A stretch of DNA of 63,270 bases, taken from positions 1 to 63,270 of the IMG/VR virus record IMGVR_UViG_3300024264_002146. One strand, 5' to 3'. Positions 2,077 through 21,662 of the stretch are shown here, one piece after another. The DNA is from a virus (lineage: Duplodnaviria > Caudoviricetes). Position 1 is the stretch's first letter. The number at the start of each line of letters is the position of its first letter. The position numbers and the translations under genes were made by a program. The notes beneath the pieces were generated by a model. That model was given only the letters and a program-made list of their open reading frames with translations. It made no database searches and was not told where the DNA came from.

Positions 2077-5000
2077 ATGGCAGAATTTAAACTAGGTAGA
2101 ATTAGATTTATATGGAAGGGCGACTGGTCCGCTTCTACAGTTTATTACAAAGATGATATCGTTCGCAACGGCGGTAATGTATATGTTGCTTTGTCAGGAC
2201 ATACAAGTTCAGTAGATTTTGCTAATGATCAAAGCATACATTGGAATAAAATGTCCGACGGCCAAGACTGGAAAAGCGACTGGCTAGTTAACACCTATTA
2301 CAAAATTAATGACGTTGTAAAATACGGCGGCTACTTATATATTGCTAATACAGCTCATACTAGTGCTGCAACAGTAACACTAGGATTAGAAGATGATCAG
2401 GCAAAGTGGGACCTTTACGGAGAAGGCTTTGACTGGAACGGCGATTGGAGCGAAACAGCTCGCTATAAAATAAATGATATTGTAAAATACAACGGTATAA
2501 CTTATATCTGTATTGAAGGTCACACAAGTGCTAGTAGTTCTTTAGGACTAGAAAACGATCAATCTAAATGGCAAGTATTTTCAGAAGGTTTTGAATGGCT
2601 AGGTAACTGGGCAACTGAGCAAAGATACAGAAAAAACGATATTATAAAATATGGCGGACAACTTTATGTTGCTAATACCGGCCATACATCTGCAGCAACA
2701 GAAACACTAGGATTAGAAGCTGACCAATCAAAATGGGATTATTTTCATAAAGGTATTGAATATAAAGGTACATGGGCAACTTCTATAAGATACAAAGTAA
2801 ATGATCTTGTAAAATGGGGTGGTGGCATATGGATTGCTAATACACATCATACAAGCACAACAAGTTTAGCAGCAGACGAATCTAATTGGGCACAATTTGT
2901 AGAAGGATTAGAGTTCGAAGATAATTGGAGTGCTTATGAAAGATATCAACCTGGCGATATAGTAACTTATGGTGGATATTCGTATGTAGCAGTCACAAAT
3001 AACATTGCTTTGAAACCGTCAGATAACACAAGTGATTGGGACGTACTAAACACTGGTTGGCGGTTCATAGGCGATTACGACGACGATAGTACAAATAGAG
3101 AATACATCGAAGGCGATGTAGTAAGACTTGGCGGATTTACATACCTATGTATAGACAAGCATACTGGACAACGTCCACCTAATACTGATTACTGGGAAAG
3201 ACTTAACAGCGGTATCGAATGGAAAGGTGCTTGGGCAGATGCAACATTTTATGATGCAGGAGATGCTGTGCGCTATGGCGATAACAGTTATATTGCTATT
3301 GTTGCTCACGATTCAGACGAAACTGTTGCTCAAAACAGACCAGACCAAGATGTAGACGGCAGTGAATGGAATTTATTATCCGGCGGCGTAGAAACTAATG
3401 TACTAACAACAAGAGGCGACATAGTTTACTATGGCGGTGCTGGTCCAGCTAGATTACCAATAGGTGATAGCGGACAAGTATTAAAAGTAAACAATGCAGG
3501 AACTGATCCGCAATGGAGTTTCTTAGGTTCAATCAATAATGTTTACTATGTTGAAACAAACAACGGACAAGACACTCCTGCACCTACATACGGTACAACA
3601 CTTGATCAACCTTTTAAGACTATTCAATATGCTGCACAACAAATAGAAAATGGTGCATTAAGACCAAATGCAAAGTATTTGATAGAAACAAATAATGCAT
3701 TTGTAATGGACGAAACAGTAGAATGGGTAGATGCACAAGTTACAGCAAATGCTGGTACTCCATTTACTAATACGTTTACTTATGATAAAGCGGCTTGGGA
3801 AATATATAGTGGAAGATTAGTTTCTGCTATTATGTATGATATAACTCACGGTGGCAACCAAAAGGTAAGAAATTTAACTTTAGATATTTTTGATAACACT
3901 GATATTGTTGGCAAAGAAGCAGAATTTAATGCAGCAATGACTTACACTGTAGATTTAATAGATGCAGTAATAAGTAACGTTGCGCCTGCTGCTACATACG
4001 GAACTTTTAGTCAAACAACAAACGTTAGCTACTCTGAAGAAACCGATGCACAAACAACTATAGATAATTTACTTGTAATATTGACAGATGCAGTAACAGC
4101 AGGTGTTAATACAGGTGTTCCGGCAGAAAGAATTGCAAACAACACTATTTTTGTAAAGACAGGAGAATTTTCAGAAGTCTTACCAATTGTAGTACCTCAC
4201 AACACAGCAGTAGTTGGAGACGAATTACGATCAACTAGAATTGTACCTGCAGGCTCTTTAGTAAGTTCATCAGATACTCCGTATTCGCTAGCAGGTATTT
4301 TAAATTTAGAAAGTAATCTAAATGCACTGCTATCAGGAGACAACGACGGCCCAGGATTATCAGACGGATTAAGTTCGTTCTCAGGCGAATCAGTAGATTC
4401 AACATTAACTGTTGCAGATTCTGCAGTGGCATTAGAAGTAGCTGAACTTGCTAGACAAATACATGATTATATTGACTTTGGAGTAAATGGTGCGTCAGGC
4501 GACTCAACAATACCTACTAAGTACGGTAGTAATGTATTAACTACAACTATTGAGAATACATATGCTGCGGAAGTAATTGAGAAAAATAGAACTTATCTTG
4601 TAGAAGAGGTTATCGGATACATTGCAGCTACATATCCGTCATACAGTTATAATGCAGACAAATGTCGTAGAGACGTAAACAAATATATTGATGCAATTAA
4701 GCACGATCTTTTGTATTCAACTAACTATAGATCTTTACGGGCAGCAGAACAATATGTAAATGCAGTAAATGGATCAATTACCAAAGACATGTTTTACATG
4801 CGTAATGGTACAGGATTAAGAAACTGTACAGTATCAGGTCTTACAGGAACATTAAGCAGTGATAATGCATTTGGCACCAAACGTCCTACAGCAGGAGCAT
4901 TTGTAAGTTTAGATCCAGGTTGGGGTCCAGCACACACAGATGCATGGATTACTAACAAATCTCCATACGTACAAAACGTAACAACATTTGGTACAGGCTG

Positions 5001-6849
5001 TATTGGTTGTAAAATTGACGGTGACTTACACGATGGCGGCAACGACTCAATCGTTGCTAACGACTTTACACAAGTCGTAAGTGACGGTATTGGTGTATGG
5101 TGTACTAACTTAGGAAGAACAGAACTTGTTAGTGTGTTCTCATATTATGGACATATTGGTTACTTAGCAGAAAACGGTGGTAAGATTCGTGCTACTAACG
5201 GTAACTCATCTTATGGTACATTTGGTACTGTTGCAGAAGGCACAGATGTAACTGAAGTTGCAACCACTGGGCAAGTTACAAATAGATCGTTTGAAGCTGT
5301 TATAGATTCAGTATTAACAGATGGCGATGATATATTAATCTTTGAATATTTAAACGCAGGACAAGATTATACAGCAGGCGGCACAACCTTTACAGTTACG
5401 GGCGAAGGCTTCGGTGCAAGTATTAATACTCCTGTTGTAAATAACGGAGCAGTATTTGAAGTAAGAATGCTAAACCCATCAGATAACTTAGGTGGCAAAG
5501 ATTATATTACTGGAACTAACGCTGCCCAGGGCGGAAACGCTACAAGTATTACAGTTAGTAATACAGATATTAGAACAAGCGGACAATACATTGGTATGGC
5601 TGTATATATTACATCAGGTGTTGGTGTAGGACAATATGGATATATCGATTCTTACAATTCTGGAACAAAGATTGCTTCTATTTACAAAATGAGTGACGGA
5701 ACTCCTGGATGGGATCATGTCACTGGGCAAGCTGTAGAAACAACATTAGACGGAACAACTACGTATGTAATTGAACCAAGAGTTACATTTACTGCACCGC
5801 CTAGTGGCTTATACGCAGATACTGCAAAAGGCCGCGCATATGTTGAAGCCGGCCAAATTTCAAAAGTAACCCTTTGGGATACAGGTTCAGGATATACGTC
5901 TGCACCAACATTAACTTTTGTCGACCCAAATAATACAGTTGATGCACCAATACAAGTAAGAATTGCTGATGGTGTGCTTACACAACCTACGTGGACTGAT
6001 AGAGGAACAGGATTTGTTACAGCAGAAGCCGAAGTAACAGGCGATGGGTTTATGGATAGATATCAACCTGGAGAACTTATTCAAGTTGTAAATTTAACAG
6101 AAGAACCAAAAGCCGGCGCAAATGTAGAATTCGATCATTTACCGGGACAATTTTTTAGACTAGTTGTTGTAAGAGATTTAGGCGGCGTTGGTCCGTTTAG
6201 TGCGCAGTTACAAGTAAGTCCGAAACTGCCTATTACAGATGCACCTGAACACAATGAAGATCTTTCGTTTACACTGAGATACAGTCAAGTACGTCTAACT
6301 GGTCATGATTTCTTAGACATTGGTACAGGAAACTTTGCAAATACAAATTATCCAGGAGTACCATTAATTGACCCAATACCAGATAATGAAACTATAGATA
6401 GTGGCGGCGGCAGAGTGTTCTACACAAGTACTGACCAAGACGGTAACTTTAGAGTTGGCGAATTGTTTAGTGTTGAACAAGCAACAGGTGTTGCTACACT
6501 TAACGCTGATGCGTTTAACATAAGCGGCTTGCAGGAGTTATCATTAGGTGAACTTGGTTTAGGCGGAACAGGCGCAACAATTACAGAATTTAGCACAGAC
6601 GGAACGTTTACTGCTAATAGTGATAACATAGTACCTACACAAAAGGCAATAAAAACTTACATTACGTCACAAATAGGTGGCGGCGCAGCCACATTGAATG
6701 TAAATAGTATTACGGCAGGCCAGATACAAATATCTACTAATACCATAGAACATGTTGGCGATACGCAGATAAATGTAGAACAAAAAATGAACTTTAAGCG
6801 AGGAGTGGATGGCCACCCAGTCGCTCTTAACTATTTCTTAACACAATGA
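2077..6849 (+). CDS. Large virion structural/tail-fibre-like protein with N-terminal CBM5/12 (ChtBD3)-like Trp/Tyr repeats
   Basis: 1590 aa; AGGA RBS. About 8 tandem W-x4-Y-x3-D-x-V-x-Y-x-G-x2-Y repeats in the first ~430 aa; a pectin-lyase-like central region; C-terminus paralogous to the previous ORF. Confidence 0.7.
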   Translation: MAEFKLGRIRFIWKGDWSASTVYYKDDIVRNGGNVYVALSGHTSSVDFANDQSIHWNKMSDGQDWKSDWLVNTYYKINDVVKYGGYLYIANTAHTSAATVTLGLEDDQAKWDLYGEGFDWNGDWSETARYKINDIVKYNGITYICIEGHTSASSSLGLENDQSKWQVFSEGFEWLGNWATEQRYRKNDIIKYGGQLYVANTGHTSAATETLGLEADQSKWDYFHKGIEYKGTWATSIRYKVNDLVKWGGGIWIANTHHTSTTSLAADESNWAQFVEGLEFEDNWSAYERYQPGDIVTYGGYSYVAVTNNIALKPSDNTSDWDVLNTGWRFIGDYDDDSTNREYIEGDVVRLGGFTYLCIDKHTGQRPPNTDYWERLNSGIEWKGAWADATFYDAGDAVRYGDNSYIAIVAHDSDETVAQNRPDQDVDGSEWNLLSGGVETNVLTTRGDIVYYGGAGPARLPIGDSGQVLKVNNAGTDPQWSFLGSINNVYYVETNNGQDTPAPTYGTTLDQPFKTIQYAAQQIENGALRPNAKYLIETNNAFVMDETVEWVDAQVTANAGTPFTNTFTYDKAAWEIYSGRLVSAIMYDITHGGNQKVRNLTLDIFDNTDIVGKEAEFNAAMTYTVDLIDAVISNVAPAATYGTFSQTTNVSYSEETDAQTTIDNLLVILTDAVTAGVNTGVPAERIANNTIFVKTGEFSEVLPIVVPHNTAVVGDELRSTRIVPAGSLVSSSDTPYSLAGILNLESNLNALLSGDNDGPGLSDGLSSFSGESVDSTLTVADSAVALEVAELARQIHDYIDFGVNGASGDSTIPTKYGSNVLTTTIENTYAAEVIEKNRTYLVEEVIGYIAATYPSYSYNADKCRRDVNKYIDAIKHDLLYSTNYRSLRAAEQYVNAVNGSITKDMFYMRNGTGLRNCTVSGLTGTLSSDNAFGTKRPTAGAFVSLDPGWGPAHTDAWITNKSPYVQNVTTFGTGCIGCKIDGDLHDGGNDSIVANDFTQVVSDGIGVWCTNLGRTELVSVFSYYGHIGYLAENGGKIRATNGNSSYGTFGTVAEGTDVTEVATTGQVTNRSFEAVIDSVLTDGDDILIFEYLNAGQDYTAGGTTFTVTGEGFGASINTPVVNNGAVFEVRMLNPSDNLGGKDYITGTNAAQGGNATSITVSNTDIRTSGQYIGMAVYITSGVGVGQYGYIDSYNSGTKIASIYKMSDGTPGWDHVTGQAVETTLDGTTTYVIEPRVTFTAPPSGLYADTAKGRAYVEAGQISKVTLWDTGSGYTSAPTLTFVDPNNTVDAPIQVRIADGVLTQPTWTDRGTGFVTAEAEVTGDGFMDRYQPGELIQVVNLTEEPKAGANVEFDHLPGQFFRLVVVRDLGGVGPFSAQLQVSPKLPITDAPEHNEDLSFTLRYSQVRLTGHDFLDIGTGNFANTNYPGVPLIDPIPDNETIDSGGGRVFYTSTDQDGNFRVGELFSVEQATGVATLNADAFNISGLQELSLGELGLGGTGATITEFSTDGTFTANSDNIVPTQKAIKTYITSQIGGGAATLNVNSITAGQIQISTNTIEHVGDTQINVEQKMNFKRGVDGHPVALNYFLTQ

Positions 6850-6865
6850 ATGGAGATTAATTAAC

Positions 6866-7186
6866 ATGGCTACAGGAAGATTAGGAGTTGGAGACTTAAC
6901 TGGTGATGTGGATACAACATTGTATACATGTCCTACAGACACATTTGCAATAGCAAGTGTATCAGTTTGCAACAGAGGAAATTCGCCGACTACTATAAGA
7001 TTAGCAGTAGCGGCATCAGATACACCGTTGAATTCGGAATTTATAGAGTTTGATATCGAAATCAACCCCAAAGGTGTGCTTGAAAGAACAGGTATTGTTC
7101 TTGATGCAGGAAAAAAATTAGTTGTACGGTCATCAGGAGCAAATGTTTCAGCAGTTGCTTTTGGAATTGAGACGTCAACTGTATAA
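6866..7186 (+). CDS. Small beta-rich virion-associated hypothetical protein
   Basis: 106 aa, GGAG RBS, located in the structural cluster. Confidence 0.65.
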   Translation: MATGRLGVGDLTGDVDTTLYTCPTDTFAIASVSVCNRGNSPTTIRLAVAASDTPLNSEFIEFDIEINPKGVLERTGIVLDAGKKLVVRSSGANVSAVAFGIETSTV

Positions 7187-7189
7187 ATA
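7182..7189 (+). promoter_or_regulatory. T4-type late promoter (exact TATAAATA)
   Basis: Exact T4 late consensus overlapping the stop codon of 6866-7186, at the head of the Cys-rich gene cluster. Confidence 0.75.
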
Positions 7190-7211
7190 CATATAGGATA
7201 AGGAAACTAAC

Positions 7212-7544
7212 ATGGGTAGATATATATCAACAACAGGTACAGCAGCACCAGTACTTCGCGACATAGACACTACATATACTGCCGAGCCGCAAGATAGAAT
7301 ACTTGCAGATTCGTCAGGTGGAGCGTTTACAATTACGTTGCCAGCAGCAGCCGGCACATTAGAAGGTGATGTAGTGCAGATTATTGACGTAACTGGTTCT
7401 TTTGGATCAAACAACGTAACCGTTGGCAGAAACGGATCAAATATTAATAGCGATGCTTCAGATCTAACACTTGACATCAATGGCGCGATTGTTACACTAT
7501 TGTATACAGGCGCAACATATGGTTGGGTAATCTCAAGCACTTAA
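7212..7544 (+). CDS. Small tail-fibre/baseplate attachment-type protein (gp9/gp10-like domain)
   Basis: Motif DSSGGAFTITLP...GD.V.IID..GSF..NN.TV.RNG..I...L.Y....GW, recognised as typical of phage tail-fibre modules; AAGGA RBS. Confidence 0.55.
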   Translation: MGRYISTTGTAAPVLRDIDTTYTAEPQDRILADSSGGAFTITLPAAAGTLEGDVVQIIDVTGSFGSNNVTVGRNGSNINSDASDLTLDINGAIVTLLYTGATYGWVISST

Positions 7545-7557
7545 TGAGGAAATAACA

Positions 7558-8514
7558 ATGGCATCACTGCGCGAACTATTAGAGGCAAAAAACGAGATAG
7601 AGTCAAGCGAAAGCAACTTGGATACAGGTCGAGTCTACTCCTTTACCCCAGGCACTTCATGCATGAACATGCCCGGCCAATTTTTAATGTGTTGGGAATC
7701 TCCTGGTACAGGAGAAGCAATAATTGAGGTATGGGGAGCAAGCGGTTCAGCAGGCACTAACTGCTGCTGCGCATTAGGATTACCAGGTAATCCTGGCGCT
7801 TACTCTAAAAGGACACTGCCTGTAACAGGATCTAGTTTTGTATGTGGTAAAATGGGCGGCGCCTGTTGGAACACTACTTGTTGCTACAAAGGCCGCAGCG
7901 AATGTTCGTGCATTTGTTATTCAGGTTCAGCAGATACTGGTACAATGATTTCACAGGGCGGCCGAGGCGGCCCAACTTTTAATTCAAATAATGGTACTGC
8001 AATAAGTTGCTGTTATAGAGCTAATGGCTATCCATTTACACAATTTCAAGACTACTGCGGTATAGTTTGTAACTATGTGGCTGGAGAAATAGCAACTGCT
8101 TCGGGTGGTGATATTAATTGTGATGGCGGTTGGAGTTGTATGATATTTTATCATTGCAATTCCTGTTGTACATGTAGACACGTTCCGAGCATAAAAACTT
8201 CACCAGGAATATATGCAAATGATGGTGCAGTGCTTACATATAATATGGAGCACCAGACAGAACGGAACGCAGGCTCAGGCACAGGTCAGATTCACATGTA
8301 TTCTGCACTGTCGTCGGCAAGTAGATCACCCGGTGCTGTAGGACCCATGACTTACTGCTGGCAGAGCGGCAGATTCTGCTCGTGTTACGGCGGAGTGGCC
8401 TGCCACATGACATTACCGTTTGGGATACCAGCAGCGCCAGCACACGCTTGTGACAATCGATGGGATTACGGCATGATAGGTGGACATGGCGCAGTGAGAA
8501 TTACATTTAGATAA
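7558..8514 (+). CDS. Cys-rich, Gly-rich putative tail-tip protein (paralogue 1)
   Basis: 318 aa, 27 Cys by hand count; IEVWGASGS..CCC and terminal GGHGAVRITF motifs; GAGGA RBS. Confidence 0.65.
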   Translation: MASLRELLEAKNEIESSESNLDTGRVYSFTPGTSCMNMPGQFLMCWESPGTGEAIIEVWGASGSAGTNCCCALGLPGNPGAYSKRTLPVTGSSFVCGKMGGACWNTTCCYKGRSECSCICYSGSADTGTMISQGGRGGPTFNSNNGTAISCCYRANGYPFTQFQDYCGIVCNYVAGEIATASGGDINCDGGWSCMIFYHCNSCCTCRHVPSIKTSPGIYANDGAVLTYNMEHQTERNAGSGTGQIHMYSALSSASRSPGAVGPMTYCWQSGRFCSCYGGVACHMTLPFGIPAAPAHACDNRWDYGMIGGHGAVRITFR

Positions 8515-8526
8515 TAGGATTTTAAT

Positions 8527-9525
8527 ATGACAATACTTAGCGAACTTGTAAACAGTAGGTTTCCATCGGGTGCAGGCGGCAGCGCAGGCGTAGAAACAAA
8601 TTTAGAGGAAGGCATAATTTATGCATTTTCTCCGAGTACGCATTGCGGCAACACTTTCCAACAAGAAATGTGTTGGCTAGCTCCAGGAAGCGGAACTGCC
8701 GTAATTGAACTTTGGGGAGCATCAGGAAGTGGTGCTAGAATGTGTTGCTGCGGTGGCGGCGTTCCAGGTAATCCGGGAGGATACTCTAAACAAACTGTGC
8801 AAGTAGAAGCAGGCGACTATGTTTCGGGTATTATCGGTGTTTCCTGTGGTAACGATAGTTTATGTTGGAGAGGCTGTAGTCAAAGTAGCTGTGTGCGTAT
8901 TTGTCACGTAGGCGGATGTTCATGTTTGTGCTCAGAAGGCGGATATGGTGGTTTTTCAATTTGTTCGGAAGGCGGCAGCGGAATCGGCTGCTGTCTCAGA
9001 AGTAATATTGGACTACCTGGTAGTGAGTTCAGTAGTGGATGTGGAATTGTTTGTAACTTTCCGTGCATGGGTAGAGCATACCAAGGAGGCGTAGGCACTG
9101 CAGATGCACTGTGCTGCGGAGGACAAAGCTGCACAAGATTTTGGACATGTTGTCCTTGCTGTAGATGTAAAATGACGCAGATTCCTGCGGTAGCACCGGG
9201 TGTGTTTGCCAAAGGTACTTCTTGGATTGGTGTTCAAATGGAACACGATAACAGTGTATCTCAAGGCGGCATGGGGTCTGAGATGTGGAATCACGCAGCA
9301 GGCTTAAATAGTTTAGCAAAAACTGGCTACATGGGCTGGAACGGATTTCCAGCATCTTGTTGGGCAGGGTCTAGATCATGCGGTTGCTACGACAGCTCAA
9401 CATCTGGCATGCATCTTTTACCTTATGGTGTTCCAGGTACAACTTCGTTCTTATGCGATAGTGTACGACATCCTGGTTGGCGCGGCGGCATGGGTAACGT
9501 AAGAATAAGATTTATAGGATCATAA
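8527..9525 (+). CDS. Cys-rich, Gly-rich putative tail-tip protein (paralogue 2)
   Basis: 332 aa, 31 Cys by hand count; IELWGASGS..CCC and GGMGNVRIRF motifs. Confidence 0.65.
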   Translation: MTILSELVNSRFPSGAGGSAGVETNLEEGIIYAFSPSTHCGNTFQQEMCWLAPGSGTAVIELWGASGSGARMCCCGGGVPGNPGGYSKQTVQVEAGDYVSGIIGVSCGNDSLCWRGCSQSSCVRICHVGGCSCLCSEGGYGGFSICSEGGSGIGCCLRSNIGLPGSEFSSGCGIVCNFPCMGRAYQGGVGTADALCCGGQSCTRFWTCCPCCRCKMTQIPAVAPGVFAKGTSWIGVQMEHDNSVSQGGMGSEMWNHAAGLNSLAKTGYMGWNGFPASCWAGSRSCGCYDSSTSGMHLLPYGVPGTTSFLCDSVRHPGWRGGMGNVRIRFIGS

Positions 9526-9526
9526 T

Positions 9527-10489
9527 ATGGCAAATTTAAGTACACTAATACAAGCAAGATCAACAGCTGGATCAACACCAGAAACTAACTTAGCAGAAGG
9601 ATCGATTATTTGGTTTACTGCTAATACCTCAGACGGTACTCCATATCCGTGTTATGCACAATGGAAAGCTCCTAGCAACGGTAGAGTGATAGTAGAGGTT
9701 TGGGGAGCTGCTGGATCATCTAGTAGAGTTTGTTGTTGCGGAGCGTCAATGCCGGGCAATGCCGGAGCATACTCTAGAAGAGAAACTCTAGTAAGTACAA
9801 ATACATGTATTTGTTTTTGTGTAGGAATGCCTTGTACTTCACCTAGCAATCAAATCGAATGCAGCCAAGCAACTATGTTGTGTGTTTCAAATAACGGTGC
9901 AGGAGATACATTTTGTATGTGTGCTCAAGGCGGCGCTGGCGGATATGGCTACTGCATTAGCGGCGGTTCGATTGCTTGCTGTTTTGTAAGCAGCCAGGCC
10001 CTATGTAATAGTTTGAGTAGCGGTTGTGGATGGATATGCAATACTTGTAGCGGTAGGCACAATGCAACAGCCTATGGCGGAACTACAAATATTCAAGGCG
10101 GATATTCTAAACAGTATTTTGGACACTGTAACCCGTGCTGTGTTAACTGTCACTATAGCCTAGTAAAAACTAGCGCAGGTGTATTTGGCACAGAACCGTC
10201 TGAAATACGTCATAGCATAGATTGGTGTCGACAGTGCTGCGGCGGTGGCGATGTTATGCCTATGATAAATGCAGTAACTTCTGCATCCAAACAGCCGCAA
10301 CAAGGCGGCCACATCCAAGGCGAATGGTTTAGCACCCAATATTGTGGATGCTACCAATCTCATATGTGTCAGACTATGTACGGAACAGGAATACCAGCAC
10401 CAGGCGCTAACGGGCGAGAAAACGGCAGGGCCCATGGCACCAAAGGCGGCATGGGCGCAGTAAAAATTAACTTTATACCTAACTCTTAA
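9527..10489 (+). CDS. Cys-rich, Gly-rich putative tail-tip protein (paralogue 3)
   Basis: 320 aa, 29 Cys by hand count; VEVWGAAGS..CCC and GGMGAVKINF motifs. Confidence 0.65.
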   Translation: MANLSTLIQARSTAGSTPETNLAEGSIIWFTANTSDGTPYPCYAQWKAPSNGRVIVEVWGAAGSSSRVCCCGASMPGNAGAYSRRETLVSTNTCICFCVGMPCTSPSNQIECSQATMLCVSNNGAGDTFCMCAQGGAGGYGYCISGGSIACCFVSSQALCNSLSSGCGWICNTCSGRHNATAYGGTTNIQGGYSKQYFGHCNPCCVNCHYSLVKTSAGVFGTEPSEIRHSIDWCRQCCGGGDVMPMINAVTSASKQPQQGGHIQGEWFSTQYCGCYQSHMCQTMYGTGIPAPGANGRENGRAHGTKGGMGAVKINFIPNS

Positions 10490-10500
10490 GGATTACCAAA

Positions 10501-11121
10501 ATGAATATGAATTTTAACGTACCAATTACAGACGAACCATACACTAGTAGTACTAGTGAAAATAAAACTGTTGCAGCAGAATATTATGGATCACCATATA
10601 TAGTTATAGGTGTTGACCCTAGTAATTCAGCAGTAATGAGTGTTGATAGAGAAGCTGAGGAAGCAATGGATATGTCAGAGTTTGAAGACGATGTTCTTGA
10701 ATTTCATCTTATTGCAGTAAATGAGTCCAATGTATTAGCAGTAGCAAAACTAACTCATCAATTTACTAGTGAAGCTTCGGAATATACAGAGTCTTTGAAT
10801 GATGACGAGACATATACTTACCCATATGATGCTAATAATGTATTTAATGATGTGTATAATAATGATCACCTGACTTATGATGCAGATAGTGGTGCATTCA
10901 CAATGCCGGGCTTCTTAACACACGGCGTCAGCACAGAAGATTTTTGGACATCCATTACTGAAAGAAAAGAAGAGTTTAAAGTTATTCAAGCAGCCGGAAC
11001 TTTAAATGAAGATCAACAAACCGCAGTCGATGCTTATGTTGATTGGATGGAAAATGCACCTACTAAATACGACGGTGTAGCGCATTGGAAAATTCCATTT
11101 CCTAACAGTCCAGAAGTATAA
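10501..11121 (+). CDS. Acidic hypothetical protein, possible tail-fibre assembly chaperone
   Basis: 206 aa, no Cys, directly after the fibre-like paralogues. The C-terminal helix plus WKIPFP.SP resembles Tfa chaperone ends (inference). Confidence 0.45.
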   Translation: MNMNFNVPITDEPYTSSTSENKTVAAEYYGSPYIVIGVDPSNSAVMSVDREAEEAMDMSEFEDDVLEFHLIAVNESNVLAVAKLTHQFTSEASEYTESLNDDETYTYPYDANNVFNDVYNNDHLTYDADSGAFTMPGFLTHGVSTEDFWTSITERKEEFKVIQAAGTLNEDQQTAVDAYVDWMENAPTKYDGVAHWKIPFPNSPEV

Positions 11122-11131
11122 AGCCACTTTT

Positions 11132-11211
11132 AAAAAAGCTTTTGATCTAGATCAATAAGTAATTTTATACATTTGTTATAGGAATTACTTAATGAGATCA
11201 AAAGCTTTTTT
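11132..11211 (+). promoter_or_regulatory. Long hairpin sequestering the RBS and start codon of the GT gene, with an embedded late-promoter variant (ATAAGTA 11155-11161)
   Basis: Perfect 17-bp inverted repeat AAAAAAGCTTTTGATCT (11132-11148) / AGATCAAAAGCTTTTTT (11195-11211), enclosing an inner stem TAAGTAATT / AATTACTTA (11156-11191). Confidence 0.7.
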
Positions 11212-12133
11212 TGTGAACGGCGGCTACGGTAGAGTTGTTTGTTCAATACCAGCATTCGAAAAATATGCAGAAGAATCGGGAGACAATGATTTTATCATTG
11301 TGTGCGAAGGCGGCACCGATGCGTTCAAGGGCCATCCAATACTTGATGAAAGAGCATATGATATTTGGCACAAAAATTTATTTAGAGAAAAAATAAAAGA
11401 CAGAGAATGTGTTACTACAGAGCCCTATAGAGTTTGGGAATATTATAATCAAGAATGTAGTCTTACTCAAGCATTTGATATTCAAATAAACGATAAAGGT
11501 ATTAGAGAACTTCCTAAGACCAAATTATATCTATCAAAAGAAGAACTGTTAGTTGGAAAACAGATCGTAGATGAAGTAAAAGAAAAACTTAAAAAAGACA
11601 AGGTCATCTGTATTCAACCATTTGGCCGCAGCTCTACAGTTAATAATAATACATTCATGGATAGTAGCGGAAGAAGTATAGAATATAAAGATCTAAAATC
11701 TATAATAAAAAAATTACAGAAAGAAAAGTTTGCTGTAGTTATAATGAGTGAATACAAATTTGACTTTTCTAAAGACGGATTTGCAGACGAAGTAGCAATG
11801 CCTGATAATGTTAGTCTAAGACAATGGGCTTCAGTTATAAAGAATTGCGATCACTTCCTTGGATGTGATAGTGTTGGTCAGCATTTATCATATCAAGCAG
11901 AAACACTAACCACAATTGTAATAGGATCAACATTTCCTGTAAATGTTAGCTATCCGGACTGTGAGTATTTTAATATTATTGATCTAGGTATGCATGACAG
12001 AGTATACGATCCAATCAGAATATTACCCGATGAATATACATCAAGAAAAAATGAAAACATCATGTATATGAGTGCAGAAATACAAGACTACGTAGTAGAC
12101 ACTGTACTAGGAAAAAACCCAGAAACAAAATAA
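11192..12133 (+). CDS. GT-B glycosyltransferase, GT9 (heptosyltransferase)-like
   Basis: N-terminal GGYGRVVCSIPA and C-terminal CDHFLGCDSVGQHL resemble the GT9 GDxxxxxP and xxFIGxDSGxxHL motifs. Confidence 0.65.
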   Translation: MRSKAFFVNGGYGRVVCSIPAFEKYAEESGDNDFIIVCEGGTDAFKGHPILDERAYDIWHKNLFREKIKDRECVTTEPYRVWEYYNQECSLTQAFDIQINDKGIRELPKTKLYLSKEELLVGKQIVDEVKEKLKKDKVICIQPFGRSSTVNNNTFMDSSGRSIEYKDLKSIIKKLQKEKFAVVIMSEYKFDFSKDGFADEVAMPDNVSLRQWASVIKNCDHFLGCDSVGQHLSYQAETLTTIVIGSTFPVNVSYPDCEYFNIIDLGMHDRVYDPIRILPDEYTSRKNENIMYMSAEIQDYVVDTVLGKNPETK

Positions 12134-12157
12134 TCTATTGAGGAAATTAAAAACACT

Positions 12158-13945
12158 ATGGAAAACAACACAGGTTATATTGCTGCAATAGCACGAGGAC
12201 ACAATGCAGGAGTTTGTCTTTTAAAAGATGGAGAAATTATTTTTTCTATTGAAGAAGAGAGATTAACTCGGCAAAAATATGATGGCGGCCCGTATGCAAG
12301 TATGTTAAAAATATTAGAGTATACAGATAAAATTGATTATCTTGTAGTAGCGCATACGCAAGGACTTAACGATACAGCAGGCAAAGTAGATTTTAGTGGC
12401 GATGATGTATATACAGGACTAGCCCGCAAGTTAGGACTTATATCTCGTAAAGAAAATAATCACGAGCATCCTCAAGTAATAGATTTGAGTCACATACATC
12501 ATAGATTACACGCTGCATGTGCATTTTATAGAAGCGGATTTGATGAAGCAACAGCAGTAATTGTAGACGGCGCTGGCACATTTATGCCAATGAATGTAAA
12601 CGGAGAAGAGACAATAGGCTGGGAAACAGAAACAGTATTTGAATGTAAATATCCAGATGCAATAAAAACTGTATACAAGCACATTGGCACTCGAGGTCCG
12701 CACTATGGCGGCAAACTTCAAATATCCGAAGGTGACAGCGAATATACAGCATTTTTATCAGATACTGCTGGTATTGTAAAGGCATATGAAGCTGCAACAC
12801 AATATTGCGGATTTAGTGCAATTGAAGCTGGAAAAACTATGGGGTTATTTCCGTATGGAGAAGAAAATCCTAATATTCCAAAAATGTTTAATTATGACAG
12901 CATTATTCCTACAACTAATAGAAATTTAATTATACCTACATATCCAAATGCTGGAGCAATAAATGCTGGTCATTATGCAGAATTAGAAACAAAAGAAGAA
13001 GATTTTGTAGACGCAGATCTTACAACATTCCAAAATAGAAGAGATATTGCTTATGCTGTACAAACTCAGACACAGGATAGAGTAACACAGTTAATTAAAG
13101 AAGCTGTAGAAATGACAGGTATTAAAAATGTTGTTATAAGTGGCGGTTATGGGTTAAATTGTGTTGCTAATTATCACTATTTAAAAGAGTTAGATGATGA
13201 TATAAAGATATACGCAGAACCTATATCAAATGATGCTGGCACAGCATTAGGAGCAGCATTATTATATCATAAAGCTAGAGCGCAAGATGAAACAGTAATG
13301 CAACGATCAGACGATCTATATCTAGGACCAAAATACGAATATTCAACAAAGGAAATATATAGCTTAGGAAAGAGTTACAGCGCAGAAATAGAAGATGCTG
13401 ACCATGAAAAAGTTATTGATCTAATAACATCAAAAAACATTGTTTCTGTATTCCAAGGTCGATCAGAAAATGGTCCTAGAGCGTTAGGTAATAGAAGTAT
13501 ACTATATGATCCTACAGATCCTAAAGGTAAGGATCATGTAAACACAATAAAACGTCGCGAATACTTCCGTCCATTTGCAGGCAGTATACTAGAAGAAGAT
13601 GTACACGAATGGTTTGACTTACGTGGTATGGAAAGTTCACCAACGATGATGTATGCCGTAAATTGCCAACCAGGTATTGAAGAAAAGATTCCAGCTATTA
13701 TTCATGTTGACGGAACGTGTCGTATTCAAACTGTAAATAGAGATCAGAATCCTCATTACTATGATATTATCAAAGCATTTAAAGAGCGCACAGGATGTCC
13801 GATTATATTTAATACTAGCTTTAACTTAGGCGGCGAGCCGTTAGTAGAAACACTTGAAGATGCATTGTGGACATTACAGCAAAGTGATATAGAATATTTG
13901 TATCTACCAGAATACGGAAAGCTACTTACTATTAAAAACAAATAA
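12158..13945 (+). CDS. Carbamoyltransferase, NodU/CmcH/TobZ family
   Basis: EEERLTR, HHRLHA, DGAG, GKTMGL, GGYGLNCVAN, DAGTALGAA, GPRALGNRSIL, RPFA, HVDGTCRIQTV and NTSFN motifs all present. Confidence 0.95.
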   Translation: MENNTGYIAAIARGHNAGVCLLKDGEIIFSIEEERLTRQKYDGGPYASMLKILEYTDKIDYLVVAHTQGLNDTAGKVDFSGDDVYTGLARKLGLISRKENNHEHPQVIDLSHIHHRLHAACAFYRSGFDEATAVIVDGAGTFMPMNVNGEETIGWETETVFECKYPDAIKTVYKHIGTRGPHYGGKLQISEGDSEYTAFLSDTAGIVKAYEAATQYCGFSAIEAGKTMGLFPYGEENPNIPKMFNYDSIIPTTNRNLIIPTYPNAGAINAGHYAELETKEEDFVDADLTTFQNRRDIAYAVQTQTQDRVTQLIKEAVEMTGIKNVVISGGYGLNCVANYHYLKELDDDIKIYAEPISNDAGTALGAALLYHKARAQDETVMQRSDDLYLGPKYEYSTKEIYSLGKSYSAEIEDADHEKVIDLITSKNIVSVFQGRSENGPRALGNRSILYDPTDPKGKDHVNTIKRREYFRPFAGSILEEDVHEWFDLRGMESSPTMMYAVNCQPGIEEKIPAIIHVDGTCRIQTVNRDQNPHYYDIIKAFKERTGCPIIFNTSFNLGGEPLVETLEDALWTLQQSDIEYLYLPEYGKLLTIKNK

Positions 13946-13948
13946 ATA
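13941..13948 (+). promoter_or_regulatory. Late promoter box (AATAAATA)
   Basis: Overlaps a stop codon and precedes the RBS of 13974. Confidence 0.55.
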
Positions 13949-13973
13949 CTAATAACAATATTAGGAAAAACAA

Positions 13974-14366: not shown

Positions 14367-14381
14367 ATTTGATCTTTTTTA

Positions 14382-14389: not shown

Positions 14390-14406
14390 CTATGCAGGAG
14401 TAGATA

Positions 14407-15219: not shown

Positions 15220-15222
15220 AGA

Positions 15223-18200: not shown

Positions 18201-21033
18201 AGGAGTGATGCAAACTGTAGTTAGTTCTTATGTTACTGCTAATTTAGGTGATAACTTAGATCTTATAAGTACTTTCACAATATCAGAAAACACAGATACT
18301 GCATTAGCAGCAGCAAGTTCTTTATCTTTTGGAGCATTAGCAACTCTAGAAGTTACATTTCCTAATGCACACGGACTAGTGCCTGGAAATACATTTATAG
18401 TAAGTATAAATTCAGATGACGGAGCTAACAATCATGCATTATCATCAGGATCATTCTTTGCAACTGATATACCGTCAACTGATAAACTAAGATTCCAAGC
18501 TAGAGCAGAAGGTACAATTGACGATACTATACAAATTGGTGGAGAAGTTTATCCAAGACCAGATAGCTTCTTTATACACAGACCGTTTGATGGCGGTGTA
18601 CAGCTAGGTACAGGCGGTCCGCAACACGGCTCACAAGCTATACGTCAAAGTAAAAAGTATATTCGTTACCAGTCAGGTAAAGGCATTATGTATACAACTG
18701 GCGCACTTTTTGCTCCGAGCTACGATATTAGAAGTATAACAGCAGAAGATGTAGAAGTTGGCTCACTTATAACTGTTGTTACTGATGATAACGATCACGG
18801 AGTACAAGAAGGCGGCATAATCCGTTTGCTAGGCGTAGAAACACCAGGATATAACAGTGGTCCTGAAACTGCTGTTCCTCCTACATTTGATTATACAGTT
18901 GTTGATATAGTTGACGAACGTACATTTAAAATAAGAGCCCAGCGTAGACTAGGTGCAACTACTGCTGTACTAGGTTTCGGCGCCCAAATGAGTGTTGTTA
19001 GTTGGCACGGTGCTACAGTACGTTCAGGTATCTTTGATGATCAAAATGGTATTTTTTGGGAGTTTGATGGCACACAGATAAGCGTTGTGCAAAGAACAGG
19101 TACTAGACAACTTGCTGGCACAATTGCATTATCTATAGATAGTAATCTTATATCAGGAACAAACACTAGATTTTTAGATCAATTAAAAGCAGGTGACAGA
19201 ATTATTATCAAAGGCATGACACATGTTGTGAGTCATGTTAATAGTCAAACCGAATGTACTATCACACCTGACTGGCGCGGAGTTGTAGATATTGTTGGTG
19301 CAAAAGCTAACTTAATTGTTGACAAGAAAACAAAACAAAAAGACTTTAATCTAGACAGATTAGACGGAACTGGACCAAGTGGTTACGATATTGATATTGC
19401 TAAAATGCAAATGATTGGTATTCAGTACAGTTGGTATGGTGCTGGTTTTATTGACTTTATGCTGCGTGGCGCAGATGGTAACTTTGTATTTGCGCACAGA
19501 ATGCGTAACTCAAACGTAAACACAGAAGCGTTTATGCGTTCAGGTAACTTGCCTGTGCGTTATGAAGTTAGTAACGAAGGGCCAAGTGGTAAATTAGCAG
19601 CAGCAATGGATTCAACTCAAAATACTATTCCGTTAGTAGACAGTAGTTTCTTTCCAGACTATGGTACAGTTTATATTGATAACGAAATTATATCATTTAC
19701 TGGTAATGATAAAACTACGGACACACTAACAGGAATAACTAGAGGAGCAACATTTACTAACTTCCAAGCAGGCGCCACAAGATCATACACAGCAAGTATA
19801 GCAGCTATTCATAACGATAGAACAGGTGTTGTATTAATATCGCAAACAATTACGCCATTAATTAGTCACTGGGGTAGTGCGTTTATTACAGACGGTGGTT
19901 TTGATGACGATCGAGGTTATATTTTCTCATATGCTGCGACAGGTGTTGCGATCAGTACTACTAAAAATACAGCCTTTATGATTCGTCTATCACCTAGTGT
20001 TAGTAATGCACTAACTGGTGACTTAGGTGAACGCGAACTACTAAACCGTGCGCAGTTATTACTATCAGGACTTGAAATTACTTCAGATACAAGCACAGGC
20101 GGTATTGTTGTCCAAGGCGTTCTTAATCCGCAAAACTATCCGTTAGATCCTGGATCAGTATCGTGGTCAAATCTAAGTGGCGCAGCACAAGGTGGCCAGC
20201 CTAGTTTTGCACAAATTGCTCCGGGTGGTGCTATTAACTGGAATGGCGGCGCAAGCGAAACTACTACTGCGGTTAATATTAGTGCAGACATACAAACTTC
20301 AACATACACTCCATTAGTATTTGGCACTGGTGAAAATAACTCACCGATTGAAATTCTTTCTAGTGTATATAATGGAGTTGGTGCAGCGTATACTGGTGCC
20401 GAAATTTACGAAGCAAATGGTAATGCATACAGCGGCGGCAGTCAAGGAACATACCTTGTAACTAGTATTAGAACAAGTGGAAATCAAACTCTTATAGATT
20501 TTAGAAGTACTACTGGTAGAACACGAAAAGCCACAAACTTTACTGGTACTCCTGGCATATTCTTTAAACAGTCATCATATACTGGATTTACAAACAAATT
20601 AATTTTTACTAAAGCAGCTTGGGAAGCAGGCGGTGCATCCGAAGGTACATCAGTTGCTATAACTGATACTAATTGGCCAGCAGGAACTGCGGTATCGAGT
20701 GTAGAACTAAAATCGTTAGGTGGAATTGAGTTTTATGAAGTTACATTTAACCAAACTTCTTTAAATTCGTTATCAACAAGTGATAATGTTACATTCCTCT
20801 TTGGACAACCACCATTTGCCCAACCAGGTGAAACTGTGTTCTCATTCATTGCTAACCCAGGTGAACGTTCTACACTAGATTTATCAGAATTGAAAGAGCT
20901 TACTAATACGCCACTAGGTGGACGAGGAACATATCCAAATGGTCCTGACGTGTTGGCTATTAATGTTTATAAGATTTCTGGAACAGAAGTTTCTGGTAAT
21001 ATTATTCTAAAATGGGGCGAAGCACAAGCTTAA
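15223..21033 (+). CDS. Very large virion structural (baseplate/tail) protein
   Basis: 1936 aa, Gly/Thr/Ser-rich, with five internal beta-sandwich-type repeats; late-gene context. Confidence 0.7.
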   Translation: MAKTQLKNYVYKPGLAATDNRYPDAYSLILQNKSFIQKESAAWIQDQIDASTAGFVGYTYNQEKCERDVGYNIDAYLLDIRYGGNENTYNTIKYYWDQDVAQIDGDRQPEIQTYGFIKTLINTYILQNTSYSASNTEVTQTLDLTKTAETDAIDEIDALLDNTIQVVTSGLSSLPTLVDNGVGRIKVQGRYDTDELLLITNTTKNEIIYNFSNPTTGGFVTLKTDSVNEDKDFLKYLQTTDAITTITLNYDTSSHSSTDDIQIFVEKIENGKSVVTTRPYDFGTDAIERMRIAPPLSMLDADFEYGLQPTKWAAISTMRGYPSIYEVPGTDTSVLSVITDASAGTSGVGQSLITVTTVSPHGFVEGDPITIKALEDSVVGAARAEGSFIIVDVPSDRTFTFFAKSKVGENDGDILSTTYTQLRKAGFYTGATIGNPTFSVLSNGSSGTMVTELGTAAGSDRIAFDGNAPEIGSPITDASNAIPVGAQVTGVRTTSSGGGTYITPTIEGDYGPGATSIQVTDSTGVVQDLALDSGTGTAVYVSSVAGNTINLSNPLTASLTGNTTTYTAVEGLNQTGVGVDAEFDVSRASGSYTIDAISNSGSNYEIGDRILVAGTLLGGLSPDNDLVVIVDTVLGSGAVETFSTEGTAFTGTLTLPGITAPPAEGGAGSGARFNVTIDNGSFDVTLATGPNDDDSTGYSVTDQVIIAGDEFPGGFSPANDLIIQVTAITSGGAIDTFTVSGTAPDASATITNPPIASTTTVAGSNAAYDVTITGSVYSVTRTNDGINYLPTEEIVISGAELGGTSPTNDLTITIDNVDGTGAITAESASGVATGILPVGDFDASNLIGSGLTFNVGLDAGTYSVVVADTGTNYGIGQEIIIPGSSLVGEDVTNNLTVTISTLIGENGVDAITSSGTAASGTASYTSVAGSNDAPIGSNGEFTIQRTGGTYGSITITNGGNGYQIGNRIKIIGGQLGGQSPQNDLILRVTGAVAGVMQTVVSSYVTANLGDNLDLISTFTISENTDTALAAASSLSFGALATLEVTFPNAHGLVPGNTFIVSINSDDGANNHALSSGSFFATDIPSTDKLRFQARAEGTIDDTIQIGGEVYPRPDSFFIHRPFDGGVQLGTGGPQHGSQAIRQSKKYIRYQSGKGIMYTTGALFAPSYDIRSITAEDVEVGSLITVVTDDNDHGVQEGGIIRLLGVETPGYNSGPETAVPPTFDYTVVDIVDERTFKIRAQRRLGATTAVLGFGAQMSVVSWHGATVRSGIFDDQNGIFWEFDGTQISVVQRTGTRQLAGTIALSIDSNLISGTNTRFLDQLKAGDRIIIKGMTHVVSHVNSQTECTITPDWRGVVDIVGAKANLIVDKKTKQKDFNLDRLDGTGPSGYDIDIAKMQMIGIQYSWYGAGFIDFMLRGADGNFVFAHRMRNSNVNTEAFMRSGNLPVRYEVSNEGPSGKLAAAMDSTQNTIPLVDSSFFPDYGTVYIDNEIISFTGNDKTTDTLTGITRGATFTNFQAGATRSYTASIAAIHNDRTGVVLISQTITPLISHWGSAFITDGGFDDDRGYIFSYAATGVAISTTKNTAFMIRLSPSVSNALTGDLGERELLNRAQLLLSGLEITSDTSTGGIVVQGVLNPQNYPLDPGSVSWSNLSGAAQGGQPSFAQIAPGGAINWNGGASETTTAVNISADIQTSTYTPLVFGTGENNSPIEILSSVYNGVGAAYTGAEIYEANGNAYSGGSQGTYLVTSIRTSGNQTLIDFRSTTGRTRKATNFTGTPGIFFKQSSYTGFTNKLIFTKAAWEAGGASEGTSVAITDTNWPAGTAVSSVELKSLGGIEFYEVTFNQTSLNSLSTSDNVTFLFGQPPFAQPGETVFSFIANPGERSTLDLSELKELTNTPLGGRGTYPNGPDVLAINVYKISGTEVSGNIILKWGEAQA
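17020..18190 (+). repeat. Five ~90-100 aa protein-level repeats
   Basis: Recurring G-x-(N/G)-Y-x2-G-(D/E)-x-I-x-I-x-G-x2-LGG-x-SP-x-NDL-x-I-x-V motif; boundaries approximate. Confidence 0.75.
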
Positions 21034-21662
21034 TCCTGTGCTTCTAACCAGTTTACAAAGGCAGCAAGATCATCAAAAATCTTAGTTGCCTTTTTAATCT
21101 TTTTGTATGTAAATCGTTTGTTTATTAATTCTTCTGTTTCTTTACCGTAACCTGTACGTACTAGTATTGGTTTAGAATTCATTTTCATCGCTACTTTTAA
21201 ATCAGAGATTTTGTCTCCTACATAGTACCCTTTAGAAAATTTTATATCAGAATGTTCTTTTTCACAACGCTTAAACATTCCTGTGTTAGGCTTAGCATAC
21301 ATATCATTTTTTGCACTGCTTGCGCTATAGTAAAGTGCATTAATACTAGGACAACCTGCTTTACCTAAGAGTTCAAACATATAGTTGTGTAATTTATCAA
21401 CATCGTCTTCTGTAAAAAGCCCGTGCTCTATGCCGCCTTGATTTGTTATAATAACAATCTTGTGTCCTAATTGTCTAATCCTAGCAACTGCTTCTAAACT
21501 TCCTTCTATAGGTTCAAAATCTTTTGGATCTACAGTGTAAGTGCCCCTATCAATGTTAAGGACACCGTCTCTATCTAAGCCGATTACACACTTTTTATCA
21601 AAATTTTTCGCCATTTGAGTAACATCGCTACTCCAAAGTACTTTAGGCTGTGGGACTGTCAT
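21030..21662 (-). CDS. gmhB: D,D-heptose 1,7-bisphosphate phosphatase (HAD IIIA)
   Basis: LDRDGVLN, ITNQGG, KPNTGM, VGDKISD and VRTGYG motifs; clustered with hldD/hldE. Confidence 0.88.
   Translation of the reverse strand: MTVPQPKVLWSSDVTQMAKNFDKKCVIGLDRDGVLNIDRGTYTVDPKDFEPIEGSLEAVARIRQLGHKIVIITNQGGIEHGLFTEDDVDKLHNYMFELLGKAGCPSINALYYSASSAKNDMYAKPNTGMFKRCEKEHSDIKFSKGYYVGDKISDLKVAMKMNSKPILVRTGYGKETEELINKRFTYKKIKKATKIFDDLAAFVNWLEAQD

Follow-up and report, generated by a model that had tools for sequence, protein, structure and literature searches.

Cys-rich fibre adhesins beside a putative heptosyltransferase and carbamoyltransferase pair in an uncultured marine T4-like phage

In a 63,270-bp fragment of an uncultured virus of the Caudoviricetes (positions 1 to 63,270 of IMG/VR record IMGVR_UViG_3300024264_002146, rated 18% complete; this whole stretch is called the window below), three genes for cysteine (Cys)-rich paralogues, one for an acidic protein, one for a glycosyltransferase (GT)-like protein and one for a carbamoyltransferase follow each other on the plus strand. 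Judged by gene order in related loci, this module is real and conserved, and it would be the distal portion of the tail-fibre module with which an uncultured marine T4-like myovirus recognises its host. The role of the 'lipopolysaccharide (LPS)' or heptose genes of marine T4-like cyanophages has been in question since P-SSM2 was sequenced, and the module links one pair of GT and carbamoyltransferase genes with a particular family of receptor-binding proteins that had no name before. Our best explanation, which taken as a whole is tentative and falls short of an even chance, runs as follows. A long fibre gene and two genes for small fibre-associated proteins would be followed by three paralogous stand-alone receptor-binding adhesins with about 9% Cys and a fold of the Pam3 gp24 type; a fast-evolving acidic protein would most likely serve as their assembly chaperone; a GT9-fold transferase and the carbamoyltransferase, fed by ADP-heptose genes of the phage, would build an O-carbamoylated heptose, with heptose presumably added first and carbamoyl second; and the likeliest acceptor would be the adhesins or a neighbouring virion protein, during late assembly. 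The genes concerned, with lengths in amino acids (aa), are the following.

2077..6849, plus strand: long tail-fibre protein, 1590 aa, with CBM5/12 repeats (PF02839 E 4.9e-39; phrog_9851, tail fiber protein, E 3e-215)
6866..7186, plus strand: small fibre-associated protein, 106 aa (phrog_11338, tail fiber protein, E 2.7e-12)
7212..7544, plus strand: small adaptor-like or attachment-like protein, 110 aa (15 PHROG families matched, 9 of them categorised as tail)
7558..8514, plus strand: predicted Cys-rich fibre adhesin of the TG (tumour necrosis factor (TNF)-like plus glycine-rich) type, paralogue 1, 318 aa, 27 Cys (AlphaFold2 model; phrog_4205)
8527..9525, plus strand: predicted Cys-rich TG fibre adhesin, paralogue 2, 332 aa, 31 Cys (36% identical to paralogue 1, BLASTP E 6e-54)
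9527..10489, plus strand: predicted Cys-rich TG fibre adhesin, paralogue 3, 320 aa, 29 Cys (35% and 33% identical to paralogues 1 and 2)
10501..11121, plus strand: acidic protein, 206 aa, putative fibre assembly chaperone (39 Asp plus Glu against 8 Lys plus Arg, no Cys)
11192..12133, plus strand: GT9-fold glycosyltransferase-like protein, 313 aa (phrog_8954 E 2e-135; AlphaFold2 model)
12158..13945, plus strand: NodU/CmcH-type carbamoyltransferase, 595 aa (PF16861 E 9.7e-61, PF02543 E 3.8e-27; phrog_1601 E 1.7e-168)

A preliminary description, made from the letters of this DNA alone, had pointed to three diverged paralogues of about 320 aa with 27 to 31 Cys, and these are indeed present, 33-36% identical pairwise (BLASTP E 6e-54, 7e-45 and 1e-31). 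Each contains one CCC, five or six CC and four or five CxC motifs, and strings such as CSCIC and CCPCCRC occur. The family median is 9.0% Cys and 15.0% Gly, against 0.46% Cys in 16 other open reading frames (ORFs) of the window pooled, and 19 alignment columns hold Cys in at least 80% of 59 family members. An N-terminal helix is conserved across all three paralogues, with M1, L4 and L7 invariant. The paralogues gave no Pfam match at E <=10 and no NCBIfam match at E <=1, and the family profile had no sequence-level match among the chains of the PDB; phrog_4205, to which no function is assigned, is the one family that they match. The sensitivity of BLAST is too low for these proteins. Neither megablast with the region nor tblastn with paralogue 1 gave a match in 50,697 phage records, and tblastn with an S-CAM1 paralogue reached only S-CAM1, S-CAM3 and one virus from a single amplified genome (12 records). 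A word-indexed search returned 82 unnamed metagenomic relatives and a full profile search 236 cluster representatives at E <=0.001, a small and marine family.

The AlphaFold2 model of the adhesin, built on 59 sequences (predicted local distance difference test (pLDDT) 84.8, predicted template modelling score 0.83), shows a TNF-like beta-sandwich with a glycine-rich lattice domain; helix is found only at residues 4-11, followed by a low-confidence linker (12-19) and then the TG body. Its top solved match in Foldseek is the fibre of cyanophage Pam3 (7ypx_A, E 3e-6), and the next are tail-tip chains of mycobacteriophage Bxb1 and the TG domains of ALK and LTK. In VIA-align, Pam3 gp24 reaches Z 14.7 (rmsd 3.4 over 189 aligned residues, 20% identity), the Bxb1 tail tip Z 11.6 and the ALK/LTK TG domains Z 7.5-10.5, with unrelated rows at 4.5 or less. 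Among the predicted viral structures of BFVD, uncharacterised proteins of S-CAM3 and P-SSM2 match best, followed by many 'glycine-rich domain' proteins, minor tail and tail-fibre proteins and Syn9 gp38. That the paralogues are fibre or tip proteins, as had been proposed, is borne out by the Pam3 gp24-like fold of the model and seems to us very likely. We read them as stand-alone adhesins attached via the short N-terminus; a search for longer fused forms found none, which is weak evidence.

Linkage was followed in two sets of 80 related loci that overlap in contigs (L numbers below are our labels for loci). Among the loci seeded with the GT, family adhesins were found in 75/80 and the carbamoyltransferase in 80/80; four of the five without adhesins have less than 1.3 kb upstream, and L069 is a true exception within its 9 kb. 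Among the adhesin-seeded loci, 72/80 contain the GT and 70/80 the carbamoyltransferase, and in the eight without GT the contig ends at most 471 nt after the last adhesin gene. In a wider sample of 80 loci, with 23-66% identity to the GT of the window, 59 have a family match, three more another ORF with at least 6% Cys and seven too little sequence upstream, and 73 hold the carbamoyltransferase. Inversion of the enzyme gene pair is seen in L067, L071, L077 and L078, where the pair still adjoins adhesin genes. Gene order is kept in P-SSM2, S-SSM7 and S-CAM1, and the module is also found in the cultured S-CAM3. Nearly all related viral contigs that have sufficient flanking sequence keep the gene order, and the conserved linkage asked of relatives in the preliminary description is there.

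More distant members of phrog_8954 also stand beside tail genes. In Aeromonas phage HJ05, the gene upstream of the member encodes a tail-fibre-like protein whose last 159 residues include 16 Cys, and the sheath gene comes two genes after the member; in Vibrio phage D505, the member comes before the gene for a tail protein of 1756 aa. Two of these neighbours were considered as members of the Cys-rich family and set aside: HJ05 gp49 has no statistical tie to it, the resemblance (a Cys-rich C-terminus ending in GIVEITWL) being by eye only, and the D505 tail protein likewise has no statistical tie, its Cys-rich stretch looking helical and unrelated. A related-locus search seeded with the HJ05 GT alone found no relative.

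The acidic protein is in all cases encoded between the last of the adhesins and the GT, in some relatives by two tandem copies, and it evolves fast (22-33% identity to the window protein within our alignment A4). In Pam3, the trimeric gp24 needs the chaperone gp25, which is encoded next to it (PMC9608196). Because of its gene position and the analogy with gp25, the acidic protein is most likely an adhesin assembly chaperone. It has no Pfam match and no meaningful PDB sequence match, and none of 36 members of alignment A4 matches the chaperone families PF16778 (Phage_tail_APC) or PF02413 (Caudo_TAP) at E <=1. As a lead only, two look-alike clusters of a language-model atlas (scores 0.90 and 0.89) carry PF16778 in 46% and 95% of their members.

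The model of the GT-like protein (pLDDT 81.2) finds its nearest structural matches in GT9: Veillonella GT9 3tov at Z 21.4, WaaF at 19.1, WaaC at 17.1-17.8 and the protein heptosyltransferase TibC at 16.6, with other GT-B families at Z 12.4 or below and T4 beta-GT absent among the 50 structural matches listed. TIGR02201 matches the window protein with E 0.17 over 44 residues only. Of its relatives (2788 in a word-indexed search), 120 homologues were listed, of which six carry a precomputed PF01075 (64-72% identical) and five are named ADP-heptose:LPS heptosyltransferase by the Joint Genome Institute. A weak hhalign alignment of the family with E. coli WaaC (E 0.03, low confidence) is colinear over 231 columns and pairs R14 with WaaC D13, which we take to be the catalytic base, and D226 of a DSxGxH-type motif with WaaC D261; both R14 and D226 are invariant across the family. 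Four motifs (GGxGRV, EPY, RS and FxGCDSxGxH) do not vary, and this holds down to the Aeromonas and Vibrio phage members, which are only 25-36% identical. This pattern argues for a working active site that is unusual at the base position, and the invariant Arg aligned to the catalytic Asp of WaaC hints at a different acceptor. With a GT9 fold (Z 16.6-21.4) and ADP-heptose genes on the same phage, the suggestion of a GT9-like transferase holds up, and dependence on ADP-heptose appears to us somewhat more probable than not. Many relatives have a second GT9-like paralogue after the carbamoyltransferase (for example L033, L045, L096, L101 and L104); two copies would fit the addition of two sugars.

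The carbamoyltransferase was likewise named correctly in the preliminary description: both domains score well above cut-off, the N-terminal Kae1-like PF02543 with 96.1 bits (cut-off 24) and the C-terminal YrdC-like PF16861 with 204.7 bits (cut-off 27). NodU is the best NCBIfam match, but the equivalog NF041651 gives 140.8 bits against a cut-off of 1000; by its sequence, the 595-aa protein is a member of the NodU/CmcH superfamily and not NodU itself. The genes of a putative ADP-heptose pathway lie further downstream on the other strand.

21030..21662, minus strand: GmhB-like heptose 1,7-bisphosphate phosphatase of the haloacid dehalogenase (HAD) type (NF006506 E 3.6e-39, below the curated cut-off; PF08645, PF13242)
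21643..22035, minus strand: cupin, always with the heptose genes (Cupin_2 E 6.9e-5; WbuC-family cupin E 8.9e-4)
22025..22843, minus strand: ADP-glyceromanno-heptose 6-epimerase-like (HldD-like) protein (TIGR02197 E 1.4e-68, below cut-off)
22840..23979, minus strand: HldE-like bifunctional heptose-7-phosphate kinase and heptose-1-phosphate adenylyltransferase (NF008454 E 3.4e-81, below cut-off; PfkB plus CTP_transf_like)

The HldE, GmhB and HldD models are the top matches of these genes, all under their curated cut-offs. A GmhA of the sugar isomerase (SIS) type was not found within the 63-kb fragment of this incomplete record, and the cupin, 37% identical to S-CAM1 and P-SSM2 genes annotated as 'cysteine dioxygenase', may be the missing sugar-phosphate isomerase in place of GmhA. 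As a separate observation, the 'phosphoheptose isomerase' genes of S-CAM1 and P-SSM2 (107-114 aa; L001 12919-13242, L003 13027-13371) start with DIDGT, a motif typical of HAD phosphatases, and do not encode a SIS-type GmhA. In P-SSM2, S-SSM7 and S-CAM1 the heptose genes directly follow the carbamoyltransferase, and every cultured cyanophage with the GT also has HldE-like genes. Cyanobacterial LPS is described as free of heptose and 3-deoxy-D-manno-octulosonate (KDO) (PMC4390846), which would explain why the phages bring their own heptose pathway; it also means that the usual acceptor of GT9 enzymes is one that the hosts of P-SSM2, S-SSM7 and S-CAM1 lack.

On which molecule the two enzymes act is the point at which our explanation has to be weighed. 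We favour a virion protein because the enzyme genes adjoin those of the adhesins, the usual acceptor is missing from the host, the base residue is altered, TibC as a structural relative heptosylates protein, and virion proteins are glycosylated in mycobacteriophages (Che8, Rita; Freeman 2023 as cited in PMC11256854). Taken together, these points make such a target possible, at rather less than an even chance, and modification of the adhesins themselves plausible. Several observations weigh against it. Since the window and the cyanomyoviruses are homologous over the entire structural region, part of the synteny is, from these comparisons, shared ancestry and not independent evidence. In the wider GT sample, 11/80 loci have at least 3 kb upstream yet no Cys-rich gene within 5 kb, and in three of these (L183, L185, L186) the carbamoyltransferase is missing too. 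Heptose genes occur in cyanophages without the GT as well (S-T4, P-TIM68, Sf-CH5, Sf-CH8, S-SM2), in S-T4 and P-TIM68 within sugar clusters near hli genes and away from fibres. The window GT gives no match to PF01075 at E <=10, and the chaperone role of the acidic protein draws no support from the Pfam and PDB searches. Finally, four metatranscriptome libraries have long contigs over 6800-11100 and only short ones over GT and carbamoyltransferase, with contig ends at 11076-11126 in three of the four, a weak hint that fibre genes and enzymes are separate transcripts; these libraries are assembled contigs, in which depth cannot rank genes and DNA carry-over is possible, and the hint is uninformative on the enzyme target.

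The published interpretations also point elsewhere. The host-recognition clusters of pelagimyophages and cyanomyophages have been read as serving modification of the host O-chain (PMC7029224), and the heptose genes of P-SSM2 and S-SSM7 as genes for LPS whose use is not known, possibly 'stuffer' DNA (Sullivan 2010, PMC3037559). In a first alternative, GT and carbamoyltransferase could modify an envelope glycan of the host during infection (LPS, O-chain or another surface polysaccharide), with superinfection block or keeping progeny off debris as the purpose, and their adjacency to fibre genes would come from a hypervariable host-recognition region that collects such genes. We consider this a serious rival, if on balance an unlikely one. 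The clusters just mentioned hold tail fibres together with glycosyltransferases and rfaE, GT9 enzymes classically target LPS cores, the heptose cassettes of S-T4 and P-TIM68 lie in non-structural sugar clusters, and the RNA contig break between acidic and GT genes adds a weak argument. The window is, moreover, rich in other sugar genes, which fit a broader cell-surface programme and to that extent speak against a virion target:

45468-57297, plus strand: second large sugar-gene cluster (GT25, methyltransferase, pyruvyl transferase, nucleotidyl transferase, 4,6-dehydratase, DegT aminotransferase and epimerases, as well as GT47-like, cytidylyltransferase/PMI-like fusion and GT8 genes)
62567-63268, plus strand: KDO-8-phosphate synthase, running off the end of the window (E 3.7e-87)

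What tells against a host glycan is that the heptose/KDO core is reported to be absent from cyanobacterial LPS, that the residue aligned to the catalytic Asp of LPS heptosyltransferases is an invariant Arg, and that the tight adjacency to the adhesins survives inversion and is found in distant Aeromonas and Vibrio phages. Host LPS and DNA bases were the two acceptors that the preliminary description had set against its own proposal; the former, widened to the host surface, keeps its weight, and the latter is weakened, as set out below.

The copy number and chemistry of the adhesins bear on a different alternative, in which the three paralogues form one obligatory heterotrimeric tip whose Cys bind many metal ions or carry an S-linked sugar. 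Relatives have two, three or four paralogues, and an iterated profile ties in those of S-SSM7 (three) and P-SSM2 (two) at E 1e-16 to 1e-20. A tree of 58 adhesins from 20 loci, picked for spread, shows orthology by gene position in part, plus recent lineage-specific duplications (paralogues 2 and 3 of L094, 1 and 3 of L026) and losses. Compared with their cyanophage counterparts, adhesins (31-42% identity, local) and acidic protein (25%) are the least conserved proteins of the block, the two enzymes the most conserved (45-54% and 48-64%). The adhesins would fit a birth-and-death family of receptor-binding proteins, and such variation in copy number (2 to 4), with duplications and losses, makes the heterotrimer of the preliminary description unlikely in an obligate 1:1:1 form. 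The conserved N-terminal helix of all three paralogues, the trimeric state of Pam3 gp24 (PMC9608196) and the abundant CC and CxC motifs can be cited in favour of a common tip that binds metal. On the other side, each protein has few CxxC motifs (0-4) and few His residues (6-7), and Pam3 already uses disulfides in fibre attachment (PMC9942802); we judge this alternative as a whole rather improbable. Most likely, the many conserved Cys would form disulfides that lock the adhesin domain after the particle has reached oxic seawater. An odd Cys count in 31/59 members means that not every Cys can sit in a disulfide, and metal binding is therefore kept as an alternative role. Covariation of Cys presence between columns (315 sequences) gave weak signals, the best being a phi of 0.52 for C276-C282.

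It is very improbable, in our estimate, that the GT9-like protein is a non-enzymatic assembly or structural factor and the carbamoyltransferase an unrelated auxiliary gene. A subunit of the plant NDH-PSI supercomplex (PDB 7f9o_6, 7wff_a, 9grx_1) has the same fold in a non-LPS setting and matches the model as well as WaaC does (Z 17.1-17.6), so that the fold alone is no proof of catalysis, and the lost Asp at the base position and the missing PF01075 match point the same way. Against this, the four motifs, which resemble a nucleotide-sugar site, are invariant at 25-36% identity, and the protein is paired with the carbamoyltransferase in 80/80 and 73/80 loci and co-occurs with ADP-heptose genes. 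A still fainter prospect is hypermodification of phage DNA, for instance heptosylated and carbamoylated hydroxymethyl-pyrimidines. Phage clusters of HAD/kinase, cytidylyltransferase and GT-B genes do put mono- or di-heptose on 5-hydroxymethylcytosine, sometimes near structural genes (bioRxiv 10.1101/2023.12.21.572611), but the heptosyltransferase of that preprint is like T4 beta-GT, the protein here like GT9. The reading is further weakened because five carriers of the module (S-CAM1, S-SSM7, P-SSM2 and two related contigs of 353 and 364 kb) contain neither a C5-methylase (PF00145) nor a ThyA-like protein or hydroxymethylase (PF00303), in a search whose controls matched in 9 and 10 of 14 genomes; a search with Tet_JBP was uninformative, its control having no match in any genome. 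The faintest prospect of all is a protein S-heptosyltransferase acting on Cys thiolates of the adhesins, with the invariant Arg stabilising the thiolate and the carbamoyltransferase capping the sugar; if true, it would introduce a new type of S-glycosylation on a receptor-binding protein and, at the same time, the first system for protein heptosylation encoded by a phage. It is the boldest form of the favoured reading, a carbamoyl-heptose O- or S-linked to virion fibre proteins, which in its broad form stands at rather less than an even chance.

Within the fibre module, two short sequence features are of note:

7182..7189, plus strand: TATAAATA, T4-type late-promoter-like motif (exact match; putative function)
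11142-11155: perfect 14-bp palindrome TTGATCTAGATCAA in the 70-bp gap between the acidic and GT genes

This copy of TATAAATA shares bases with the TAA stop codon of ORF 6866-7186, and its end is 23 nt upstream of the ATG at 7212. The window has two exact copies against 10.5 expected from shuffles, which is a depletion and not an enrichment; both (7182 and 15099) are on the plus strand directly upstream of gene starts, and the motif looks like one that is avoided outside promoters, the 7-mer TATAAAT being without such depletion (27 against 33.7 expected). Since only 17/101 distinct relatives have TATAAATA in the 100 nt before the orthologous gene, we treat it as a plausible late promoter only; of the late promoter claimed earlier, the exact motif and its place stand. 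Scans for sigma-70 promoters and terminators over 6500-15500 stayed at chance level. The palindrome has no T-run and lies near the RNA contig ends at 11076-11126, and the fold of the 96-nt stretch 11100-11195 across the gap is not unusual (z -1.4).

The genome setting agrees with a fibre module. The genes of the module had been placed inside a block of structural genes, which is confirmed by the flanks: upstream the 1590-aa tail fibre, 39% identical over 354 aa to a tail fibre protein of S-CAM1, and downstream a virion structural protein of 1936 aa, which shares 37% identity with a virion protein of S-CAM1 over 1174 aa. The 106-aa protein, 45-46% identical to its S-CAM1 and P-SSM2 counterparts, precedes the module in most loci, and several PHROG matches of the 110-aa protein cover approximately positions 100-180 of tail-spike and tail-fibre profiles of 1000-1250 aa. 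T4-like myovirus marks in the window comprise a tail sheath stabiliser of the T4 gp15 type, a sheath protein and a T4-type large terminase, and, from the ORF annotation of the window, a RecA/UvsX-like protein and very large structural proteins. Two related contigs with the same module (G001 and G002) have lengths of 353 and 364 kb and completeness ratings of 98% and 100%, and the window probably comes from a marine jumbo T4-like phage. Its terminase is closest to phages other than cyanophages:

38194-39774: large terminase (closest matches in PA5oct, a jumbo phage of Pseudomonas, 54%, and in Phosso, a phage of Sinorhizobium, 48%)

The G+C content peaks at 0.461 in the 2-kb interval 8001-10000, over the Cys-rich genes, all other 2-kb intervals having 0.32-0.42; abundant Gly and Cys codons are the likely cause. 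Amid structural and packaging genes, an ORF with a TnsA-like endonuclease N-terminal domain (35246-35683, PF08722 E 1e-22) may be a homing-endonuclease-like insert.

A literature search on heptose, carbamoyltransferases and virion glycosylation in cyanophages and other phages found no account of the Cys-rich adhesin family or its link to these enzymes, most subscription journals and supplements lying outside the search. Genes of the module are listed as T4-GC 299-308 by Sullivan 2010 (PMC3037559). What is known are the parts, namely a glycine-rich-domain fibre with its chaperone and enzymes of the GT9 and NodU types; new is their undescribed combination with a Cys-rich family. As the module is present in the cultured P-SSM2, S-SSM7, S-CAM1 and S-CAM3, the target of the enzymes is directly testable. 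If fibres are modified, host recognition by abundant phages of the ocean would depend on a phage-made glycan, and phage-encoded protein heptosylation, if true, would be new biochemistry. The Cys-rich form of the glycine-rich fibre fold would be a new structural solution for a stable adhesin, and the family a useful marker for receptor-binding proteins in marine viromes.

Among known systems, the adhesins come closest to Pam3 gp24, with which they share the TNF-like plus glycine-rich fold and the arrangement of a small stand-alone fibre protein followed by a small gene; disulfides are also used by Pam3 virions, whose fibres are cross-linked in this way to the baseplate (PMC9942802). They differ in having about 9% Cys with 19 conserved Cys columns, whereas the word 'cysteine' is absent from the available part of the Pam3 fibre paper, in a modelled helix of about eight residues instead of a long trimeric shaft, in two to four paralogues instead of one, and in a downstream acidic protein without detectable similarity to a known chaperone. 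The fold class is common to the TG domains of ALK and LTK and to phage 'glycine-rich domain' adhesins, in which much of the packing is by glycine only where Cys stands here; the comparison of S16 gp38 with Pam3 gp24 is the original authors' own.

The GT resembles WaaC, WaaF and TibC in a GT-B fold nearest to GT9 and in the ADP-heptose genes carried by the same phage. It departs from TibC in having no TibC-like N-terminal extension, the model aligning to TibC residues 96-393, and from GT9 enzymes in general in that the window protein misses PF01075 and the phage family has an invariant Arg at the position of WaaC D13. The carbamoyltransferase is like NodU, CmcH and TobZ in both Pfam domains and unlike NodU in falling far under the equivalog cut-off. 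Its pairing with a heptosyltransferase-like gene mirrors a heptose-plus-carbamoyl chemistry; a 7-O-carbamoyl-heptose occurs in the LPS core of Pseudomonas aeruginosa.

The clusters of pelagimyophages and cyanomyophages share with the module tail fibres interleaved with glycosyltransferases and rfaE-type genes in the structural region (PMC7029224), and T4-GC 302-308 of P-SSM2 and S-SSM7 are the same genes as here (PMC3037559); in the available parts of both papers, Cys-rich adhesins, a tie to the GT-carbamoyltransferase pair and virion modification are not mentioned. Mycobacteriophages, finally, encode glycosyltransferases for their virion proteins, as is proposed here; there the targets are capsid proteins, the GT families are others and the GT genes, close to the genome's 3' end, stand apart from those of the virion (PMC11256854), whereas in the system proposed here they are inside the fibre module, together with a carbamoyltransferase and a heptose pathway.

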